Below, one piece after another: positions 13 through 264 of a DNA stretch of 597 bases. The stretch is taken from NCBI RefSeq assembly GCF_003334255.1, contig NZ_QOWU01000215.1; one strand, written 5' to 3'. Under the pieces are notes generated by a model. That model was not told the DNA's origin. It made no database searches and worked only from the letters and a program-made list of their open reading frames with translations. The stretch comes from Escherichia coli. Its GTDB lineage: Bacteria > Pseudomonadota > Gammaproteobacteria > Enterobacterales > Enterobacteriaceae. Numbering within the stretch: the first letter of the stretch is position 1; each line of letters starts with the position of its first letter. The translations under genes and the position numbers were made by a program.

Positions 13-264
13 ATGGGATACGGTTTACTGGATATTGCGAATCAGTCACGGCGTGAGGCATTACAGGGAATAAGTGACGCCGACAGGCGACGTGAAGAAA
101 TTGAGGCTGCTAACAAGCAGATGGCGGCGCAACAGAAAGCGCAGAACAAGCAGAATATCGGTACGGGCATTGGTACGGGGGCGGCTATGGGCGCTGCCGT
201 TGGTGGTCTCCCCGGTGCGGCTATTGGTGCTGTCATAGGTGGTCTTGCTGGCTCGTTGTTTTAA
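13..264 (+). CDS. Small glycine-zipper protein, 83 aa; predicted single C-terminal membrane helix with a charged N-terminal domain; function unknown (possibly phage or prophage encoded)
   Basis: ATG at 13 follows a strong SD and the ORF ends at TAA 262..264. The track translation ends in ...NIGTGIGTGAAMGAAVGGLPGAAIGAVIGGLAGSLF, with 12 Gly in the last 34 residues and Gly at i, i+4 from G52 to G80. The N-terminal half is rich in R/E/Q/A. Third-position codon usage is GC-biased and enterobacterial-like, consistent with real coding sequence. Confidence 0.8.
   Translation: MGYGLLDIANQSRREALQGISDADRRREEIEAANKQMAAQQKAQNKQNIGTGIGTGAAMGAAVGGLPGAAIGAVIGGLAGSLF

Follow-up and report, generated by a model that had tools for sequence, protein, structure and literature searches.

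An open reading frame of 83 codons (ORF1), carried by a 597-nucleotide stretch of Escherichia coli DNA (contig NZ_QOWU01000215.1 of assembly GCF_003334255.1; hereafter the window), encodes a small glycine-zipper protein whose family is located in a phage internal-protein module across hundreds of lineages. The C-terminal hairpin of this family is similar to the C-terminus of gp7, an ejected protein of phage P22. We favour, with our confidence about evenly divided, the interpretation that ORF1 is a small accessory internal-virion protein of the ejection type, whose hairpin would insert into the host envelope. Already known were the class of motif, the concept of ejection proteins and the family itself (PHROG 594; named 'bacteriocin' in RefSeq). 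What is new is that the family has been placed in the internal-protein module, that its hairpin has been found similar to the gp7 C-terminus and that its annotation has been corrected.

A phage protein family in a conserved internal-protein block

The sequence-only reading of this DNA had proposed profile searches, and these gave clear matches to both a glycine-zipper family of Pfam (Gly-zipper_YMGG, PF13441; E 2.2e-6, residues 50-82) and a phage protein family of unknown function, PHROG 594 (E 1.7e-42, residues 1-83 on profile positions 1-85 of 85). We also searched the family profile against 1.84 billion representatives, which yielded 525 clusters at 50% identity (E <= 1e-3), nearly all of them 76-92 amino acids long and matched end to end. 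Scanning viral contigs revealed 80 loci, which encode 38 different proteins (78-91 amino acids, identity down to 44%). The named phages outside E. coli that carry a family member were Aeromonas phiARM81mr and Vibrio phage douglas 12A4. Searching the phage collection by tblastn aligned no more than the first 31-49 residues, the zipper being masked by the low-complexity filter.

The window falls within the late region of a Stx-like podovirus of the 933W/Sp5/phi24B type. It matched 186 phage records, all of them Stx-type or related podoviruses of E. coli or Shigella, the best being PhiR12_3 (97.2%), with 933W and VT2-Sakai at 87.6%. The homologous region was found in 420 of the 5,426 complete E. 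coli genomes (~8%), and the gene occurs in essentially all 933W-type Stx phages. The window was 100% identical to prophages of the human E. coli isolates G1/2, G6/7, G8, UCPROB-001 and UCPROB-002, which places this variant of the module among the prophages of those human isolates.

The gene order around ORF1 is a 218-amino-acid gene, a 148-amino-acid gene, ORF1, a 420-amino-acid gene and then a gene of ~2,800 amino acids. An equivalent order (~125 amino acids, ~215, ~125-195, the small protein, 420-620, and a giant polyvalent protein) was maintained in all divergent loci examined, with identity down to ~30%. The giant proteins of these loci carry the polyvalent domains LPD38, InPase, ddrB-ParB and ART-PolyVal, and SU10-type adaptor and tail genes are found upstream of the whole internal-protein block. 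Searching the three neighbouring proteins against Pfam gave no matches.

Published data are available for the neighbours. In purified phi24B virions (bioRxiv 10.64898/2026.04.10.717836), gp47 (2811 amino acids), gp48 (421), gp50 (148) and gp51 (listed there at 260 amino acids and annotated elsewhere as 218) were abundant; their structure-derived abundance was given as 'ND', meaning that they are not in the cryo-electron microscopy model, and gp47 was proposed by the authors to be an ejection protein. In addition, Mondal et al. 2016 (PMC5155283) deleted the genes of Sp5 in frame. ORF79 (421 amino acids) and ORF80 (2,793 amino acids) were essential, the mutants having DNA-filled heads without tail-fibre antibody binding (for ORF79, a phenotype in tail formation), and deletion of ORF76 (218 amino acids) markedly reduced infectivity (PMC5155283).

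Similarity of the hairpin to P22 gp7 and tape measure proteins

Next, we examined the similarity of the family to described proteins. In a Pfam scan of 128 family members, 21 matched P22_gp7 (PF25688) at E <= 1e-3, with a best value of 1.9e-8; at the same threshold Gly-zipper_YMGG was matched by 52 members, C19orf12 by 22 and Bacteriocin_IIc by only seven. Comparison of the family with P22 gp7 by hhalign gave a probability of 94% and an E-value of ~1e-7 over the last ~37 residues of gp7, whereas the alignment upstream of the zipper had low confidence. The hhalign score of 41-46 was above those obtained with 200 composition-matched shuffles of the gp7 tail (mean 11.9, standard deviation 3.4, maximum 27.6). 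Furthermore, when bases 1-20,000 of P22 were scanned in six frames, gp7 was the sole significant match.

P22 gp7 has been described as an ejected protein of which each virion contains ~12 copies and which is required for DNA injection (PMC8402733, PMC8954989, PMC10461980). It has been grouped with the T7 gp14-like membrane-inserting ejection proteins, whose genes head an operon and are followed by larger gp15-like and gp16-like genes (PMC8954989). The long proteins that the family profile retrieved were tape measure proteins, each with 5-8 zipper stretches resembling PHROG 594. The type VI secretion system effector Tde1 shares its glycine zipper with tape measure proteins, and there the zipper is required for membrane permeabilisation and translocation, the target being the cytoplasmic membrane (PMC10240207).

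Two half-zippers around a variable turn

The last 34 residues of ORF1 (residues 50-83, GTGIGTGAAMGAAVGGLPGAAIGAVIGGLAGSLF) contain glycine at positions 50, 52, 54, 56, 60, 64, 65, 68, 72, 76, 77 and 80, with GxxxG steps beginning at 50, 52, 56, 60, 64, 68, 72 and 76. Re-reading of the sequence and counting of residues agreed with the sequence-only reading, which had assigned this tail to nucleotides 160-261 and had described glycine at every fourth position from 52 to 80 (seven consecutive GxxxG steps) with extra glycines at 50, 54, 65 and 77. The tail contains the (G/A/S)xxxGxxxG pattern by which transmembrane glycine zippers are recognized (Kim et al. 2005), extended to eight glycines at period 4. 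When the 34-residue tail was shuffled 1,000,000 times with its composition kept (12 glycines), a period-4 chain of at least eight glycines occurred in a fraction of ~1.4e-4 of the shuffles; the zipper pattern of ORF1 exceeds chance. The description of the zipper as unusually long and uninterrupted holds for this protein, but it does not extend to the family, in which this feature is specific to a lineage.

To describe the family as a whole, we took 129 representatives at 50% identity and calculated residue frequencies by alignment column. In the zipper and turn the frequencies were G56 1.00, G72 1.00, G68 0.98, G76 0.96, G52 0.90, G65 0.85, P66 0.82 and terminal F 0.75. The longest glycine chain had a median of 5 and reached at least eight in only 11 of the 129. 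The spacing equivalent to G56-G68 was variable, with 8, 12 and 15 as the commonest values and 14 and others also present, and it was divisible by 4 in only 58 of 128 members. The tail contained proline in 125 of 129 representatives and GGP in 76. Given that the spacing and the turn length vary and that the median chain is 5, what the family conserves is not one continuous zipper but a pair of GxxxGxxxG half-zippers, one on either side of a GGP-type turn of variable length, preceded by a conserved N-terminal helix. The unbroken register of eight glycines is particular to the lineage of ORF1.

Length variation at the turn was also seen within E. coli. Prophage variants (P0006 and P0007; L049-L052, 6001-6270) have deletions of three or four residues, or an insertion of seven (GSAVPVVGTAVG), at the turn and keep the flanking glycines, so that the turn evidently tolerates a change of length. 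One relative (L083, 6001-6432) is 143 amino acids long; its first half-zipper is followed by a long low-complexity tail rich in Ala, Gly and Thr, without the usual hairpin end.

The N-terminal region was conserved as well (G4 0.82, L5 0.82, A16 0.80, G19 0.72, E27 0.70, R30 0.84, N34 0.75), and the MGYGL start was invariant among close relatives of ORF1. AlphaFold2 with a 128-sequence alignment predicted a helix over residues 3-63, a break at 64-65 and a second helix over 66-82, with predicted local distance difference test (pLDDT) scores of 84-95 over residues 1-40. With nine near-identical sequences the prediction was uninformative (pLDDT 54), and the helix break was likewise placed at residues 64-65. 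The earlier statement that the protein has no other domain therefore does not hold, since residues 1-48 contain conserved positions and a confidently predicted helix.

A Foldseek search of the AlphaFold2 model against the PDB gave no matches. Sequence searches of the PDB gave no matches for the single protein and nothing significant for the family profile. The best phage match of the family profile there, at a non-significant E of 0.16, was residues 117-150 of the crAss001 cargo protein gp45 (7qog chain M); this segment, GAAGQGAAAGASVGGPIGAIVGGVVGL, has the same GGP-turn zipper, in a crassvirus cargo protein that is packaged and ejected.

Proposed role of ORF1 and the evidence against it

We propose the following sequence of events. 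ORF1 would be made late, from a translationally coupled operon together with the 218-, 148- and 420-amino-acid internal proteins and the ~2,800-amino-acid polyvalent protein. It may be packaged at low copy number and may leave the capsid with the internal proteins at infection. The conserved N-terminal helix (~45-60 residues) could mediate assembly with itself or with a partner. The helix-GGP-helix hairpin would present a small Gly/Ala face for tight packing between helices and an Ile/Val/Leu face to lipid. It might then insert into the host envelope after translation, where it would form part of a trans-envelope conduit for DNA or assist it; in P22 gp7, the equivalent C-terminal segment has been assigned this role. 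The sequence-only reading had suggested either an oligomeric element that inserts into membranes or forms pores, or an anchor of the virion or membrane type. Of these suggestions, the virion and insertion side gains from the gene order and from the likeness to gp7 and tape measure proteins, whereas an indispensable pore is disfavoured by the deletion data on Sp5.

Several observations weigh against this proposal. The first concerns the Sp5 ortholog, ORF78 (ECs1240), which was deleted alone in the study cited above and was not reported to be defective. On K-12, nine genes were needed to form plaques or to lysogenise, and ORF78 is neither among these nor among the genes whose mutants were reported as reduced; the primer design leaves MGY-SLF (PMC5155283). 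This dispensability argues against an indispensable pore. It is conceivable that ORF1 is redundant with the 218-amino-acid protein, because the latter also has a Gly-rich hydrophobic C-terminal stretch.

The second concerns the ortholog in phi24B, gp49. One of its peptides, EALQGISDADR, was detected at 6 intensity units in a batch digest, and gp49, labelled 'E. coli bacteriocin', was set aside by the authors as contamination (10.64898/2026.04.10.717836), a classification that followed from its annotation as a bacteriocin. By our own arithmetic, which follows the authors' method of intensity per length and takes the portal as its reference, 6 units for a protein of 83 amino acids correspond to ~6 copies. 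However, this signal is at the level of contaminants (6 units for Lom and for an unrelated early ORF, 5 for Bor), and one peptide of gp49 was found among the entries of the phi24B supplement that the search covered. In addition, the preparation was purified on a sucrose gradient and contained ~40% emptied particles (10.64898/2026.04.10.717836), and carry-over of membrane debris is a live alternative for the signal. The mass-spectrometry evidence is thus ambiguous, given the contaminant-level units, the single peptide and the sucrose-gradient purification.

The third concerns the hairpin itself. Its pLDDT was just 54-67 in the zipper, and its hydrophobicity was borderline, with a Kyte-Doolittle maximum over 19 residues of 1.69 (usual threshold 1.6) and an unweighted Hessa sum of +4.2 kcal/mol. 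These values do not predict a canonical transmembrane helix, and each half-helix is only ~15 residues long. Such weak hydrophobicity fits a protein that is kept packageable and inserts only on oligomerisation, but it equally allows a role purely in protein packing.

Finally, the robust similarity to gp7 spans only ~35 low-complexity residues, and glycine zippers can converge. The protein encoded in the window itself had no match to the Pfam family P22_gp7 at E <= 10. A six-frame scan of Ralstonia phage GP4, the phage with the solved virion closest to that of phi24B, detected no homolog of the small protein. In GP4 (MH638294; L093, L094) a giant DarB-like protein lies beside a 509-amino-acid virion protein, and a PAPS-reductase-like gene occupies the neighbouring position.

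Alternative explanations

One alternative, which we judge unlikely but worth serious attention, is that ORF1 serves as an internal component of the virion or in assembly and at no point enters a membrane, its glycine faces serving only for tight packing between helices. It could be part of an internal protein body, a plug in the portal or tail channel, or a solubilising partner for hydrophobic segments of its neighbours, for example of the 218-amino-acid protein with its Gly-rich stretch. The synteny and co-expression fit this explanation as well as they fit the membrane-inserting ejection protein that we prefer, and the borderline hydrophobicity and the long, confidently predicted N-terminal helix, typical of a bundle or coiled coil, point in its direction. 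However, among described proteins the hairpin is closest to the C-terminus of gp7, a protein grouped with membrane-inserting ones, and the same class of motif is membrane-active in Tde1. Moreover, the alternation of small and bulky faces is a trait of transmembrane glycine zippers (Kim et al. 2005, as cited in PMC10240207).

We consider it less probable again that ORF1 is an unpackaged, late-expressed membrane protein of the infected cell, acting in the tuning of lysis, in a block to re-injection of lysing cells or as an anchor for assembly at the inner membrane. The strict position of the gene within the internal-protein block over deep divergence is hard to explain in this way, although the absence of a plaque or lysogeny phenotype in the Sp5 deletion, and a phi24B signal equal to that of the outer-membrane proteins Lom and Bor, as would be expected of debris, are both in keeping with it. 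There are also weak matches to the membrane families C19orf12 and YshB and to a holin family of PHROG (E 0.49), but the holin-type match is not significant and the lysis cassette of these phages lies elsewhere. ORF1 has neither a signal peptide nor an N-terminal transmembrane segment, and insertion of a weakly hydrophobic C-terminal hairpin from the cytoplasmic side is not predicted.

The name that the orthologs bear in RefSeq implies another explanation, namely that ORF1 is a bacteriocin or microcin of the class IIc, microcin V or microcin E492 type. We regard this as very improbable and rejected it, since there is no leader, there are no partner genes and the scores lie below cutoff. The name is widely used for the orthologs, for example for POCJ13 gp69 (L002, 12014-12265) and phiARM81mr p67 (L086, 9001-9258). 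It is attributable to a Gly/Ala-rich hydrophobic region, which ORF1 has in common with class IIc bacteriocins, microcin V and microcin E492 and which is the pore-forming mature part in bacteriocins. The profile matches of this kind were Bacteriocin_IIc (Pfam, E 0.0033), MccV (E 0.32) and the E492 microcin model of NCBIfam (14.5 bits). However, of the 59 positions in the Bacteriocin_IIc model the match takes in only 22-56, that is, the Gly-rich mature part and not the leader. A double-glycine leader is absent, with the first GG at residues 64-65, and the conserved N-terminus of ORF1, a hydrophilic helix of 48 residues, is unrelated to any leader. The E492 score compares with a cutoff of 50, and no NCBIfam model scored above its cutoff. 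As given above, Bacteriocin_IIc is also matched by far fewer family members than Gly-zipper_YMGG or P22_gp7. Furthermore, the neighbours are virion or hypothetical structural genes, and in the annotated relatives no immunity gene, ATP-binding cassette transporter gene or C39 peptidase gene is adjacent. The 'bacteriocin' annotation of the family is unsupported.

Least credible of all is an outer-membrane lipoprotein of the glycine-zipper type (YMGG, Rickettsia 17-kDa antigen, YiaD, PdsO) acting as a lysogenic-conversion factor like Lom, whose gene lies ~2 kb upstream of ORF1. Gly-zipper_YMGG, Gly-zipper_Omp and Rick_17kDa_Anti do resemble ORF1 in their two-helix zipper layout, PF13441 being the best single Pfam match, and there were weaker matches to Gly-zipper_Omp and Gly-zipper_OmpA (E 0.03) and to the NCBIfam models PdsO (32 bits) and YiaD (15.9 bits). 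Those proteins, however, are exported lipoproteins with a lipobox cysteine, whereas ORF1 has no cysteine, no lipobox and no hydrophobic signal sequence; PdsO and YiaD have cutoffs of 152 and 175, far above the scores obtained; and the gene is located within the late structural operon, in a block of virion genes, and is not a moron with its own promoter. We therefore rejected this explanation. Matches to holin and spanin families of PHROG were not significant (E 0.49 and 0.96), and the PADLOC models of defence systems gave noise only.

Layout of the window and coding evidence

The features of the window are listed in Table 1. In the annotations of PhiR12_3 and 933W, the upstream coding sequence ends at locus position 12003, which corresponds to window position 3. 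The start of ORF1 is unambiguous, because the TAA at positions 1-3 is in frame with it and the Shine-Dalgarno sequence at 2-8 precedes it. The spacers between ORF1 and its two neighbours are 9-10 nucleotides, and the Shine-Dalgarno sequences overlap the preceding stop codons; this overlap indicates translational coupling. No promoter-like or terminator-like sites were found within the window.

Table 1. Positions of genes, signals and protein segments in the window
Feature	Position	Strand	Evidence and remarks
Stop codon TAA of the upstream gene	1..3	+	Sequence; ends the 148-amino-acid gene (933W L0131/Sp5 ORF77/phi24B gp50)
Shine-Dalgarno sequence AAGGAGG of ORF1	2..8	+	Read from the sequence; overlaps the upstream stop codon
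ORF1, ATG start, 83 amino acids plus stop	13..264	+	Homolog of 933W L0132, Sp5 ORF78 (ECs1240) and phi24B gp49; PHROG 594 member
N-terminal hydrophilic region, residues 1-48	13..156	+	Alignments, column statistics and AlphaFold2; predicted single long helix
First half-zipper, residues 50-63 (GTGIGTGAAMGAAV)	160..201	+	Family frequencies G52 0.90, G56 1.00
Turn, residues 64-67, GGLP (933W: GGPV)	202..213	+	Length variable in the family; AlphaFold2 helix break at 64-65
Second half-zipper and C-terminal end, residues 68-83 (GAAIGAVIGGLAGSLF)	214..261	+	Aligns with the P22 gp7 C-terminus ...PWGAAIGGGIGLLGSLF
ORF1 stop codon	262-264	+	
Shine-Dalgarno sequence AAGGAG of ORF2	263..268	+	Read from the sequence; overlaps the ORF1 stop codon
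ORF2, first 107 codons of a 420-amino-acid protein, runs off the window	275..597	+	Homolog of 933W L0133, Sp5 ORF79 and phi24B gp48

Comparison of ORF1 with its 933W homolog showed 16 synonymous and seven non-synonymous codon differences, and 19 of the 27 base changes were at third positions. All the glycines of ORF1 were retained, four of them through synonymous changes. Given this excess of synonymous and third-position changes and the retained glycines, ORF1 is a real coding gene with constrained glycines, and it is under purifying selection. Two open reading frames on the minus strand, 42..236 (64 amino acids) and 61..330 (89 amino acids), have Pro-, Ala- and Arg-rich translations and most likely arise as a by-product of ORF1's GGN and GCN codons; the substitution bias at third positions fits the plus-strand frame.

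The downstream gene, ORF2, matched the profiles phrog_601 and phrog_15571. Members of its family (420-580 amino acids; gene at L001, 12275-13537) have a conserved N-terminal motif, G(F/L)A(E/Q)G(F/L)LAGF(S/N)T(V/M)D.

Implications and comparison with known systems

The gene is at present named 'hypothetical protein' or, misleadingly, 'bacteriocin', and the latter name led a virion proteomics study to discard gp49. If ORF1 is indeed a membrane-inserting ejection accessory, then the parts list of the genome-delivery machine of Stx phages would be completed, and the protein would serve as a minimal system of 80 residues in which to study the passage of glycine-zipper hairpins into a membrane from a state that is soluble and packaged. 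If instead it is not packaged, its strict conservation inside the operon of internal proteins would still need an explanation.

The two genes of the 218- and 83-residue proteins may also be considered together. The 218-amino-acid protein (L001, 10898-11551) is encoded two genes upstream of the window, and the N-terminus of its family, MGKGGGS.E(I/V)KET.AQKAAA, shows a weak likeness to the mature N-terminal portion of P22 gp7 (hhalign E 5.8e-4, probability 29%; BLASTP E 0.03-0.07). Apart from this, hhalign comparison of the neighbouring families with P22 gp14, gp7, gp20 and gp16 gave no signal. A gp7-like N-terminus in one protein and a gp7-like C-terminus in the other give a hint of a gp7 split over two genes. 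We suggest, as a speculation that we think improbable, that the ~215-amino-acid protein (Sp5 ORF76) might provide the gp7-like N-terminal part and the ~80-amino-acid protein a free hairpin. In a very large clade of podoviruses with giant polyvalent proteins, the two would be partly redundant and would open an envelope channel for DNA and the 2,800-amino-acid protein. If this speculation is true, then the hairpin would represent a minimal and portable membrane-breaching module that is common to tape measure proteins and type VI secretion system effectors.

Among known systems, tape measure proteins and Tde1 resemble ORF1 in having repeated GxxxG motifs with a GGP-type turn, although in them the zipper lies inside a large protein, whereas ORF1 is a free-standing mini-protein. 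P22 gp7 shares more with it. Both proteins have a high helix content and many Gln, Asn and Ala residues, and both have a C-terminal Gly-zipper helix, a proline turn, a second zipper helix and a GSLF end (gp7 tail ...GGASGAIAGAGLAKLIGSSTPWGAAIGGGIGLLGSLF, ORF1 tail ...GTGAAMGAAVGGLPGAAIGAVIGGLAGSLF). Both genes are located in the internal or ejection block, upstream of larger proteins of the ejection type. On the other hand, gp7 has 229 residues against 83 and a cleaved N-terminus of 20 residues, and gene 7 of P22 is essential, unlike the Sp5 ortholog of ORF1, a difference that belongs with the points raised above against our proposal. The downstream partner also differs, being the 609-amino-acid gp16 in P22 and the ~2,800-amino-acid polyvalent protein in the phage that carries ORF1.

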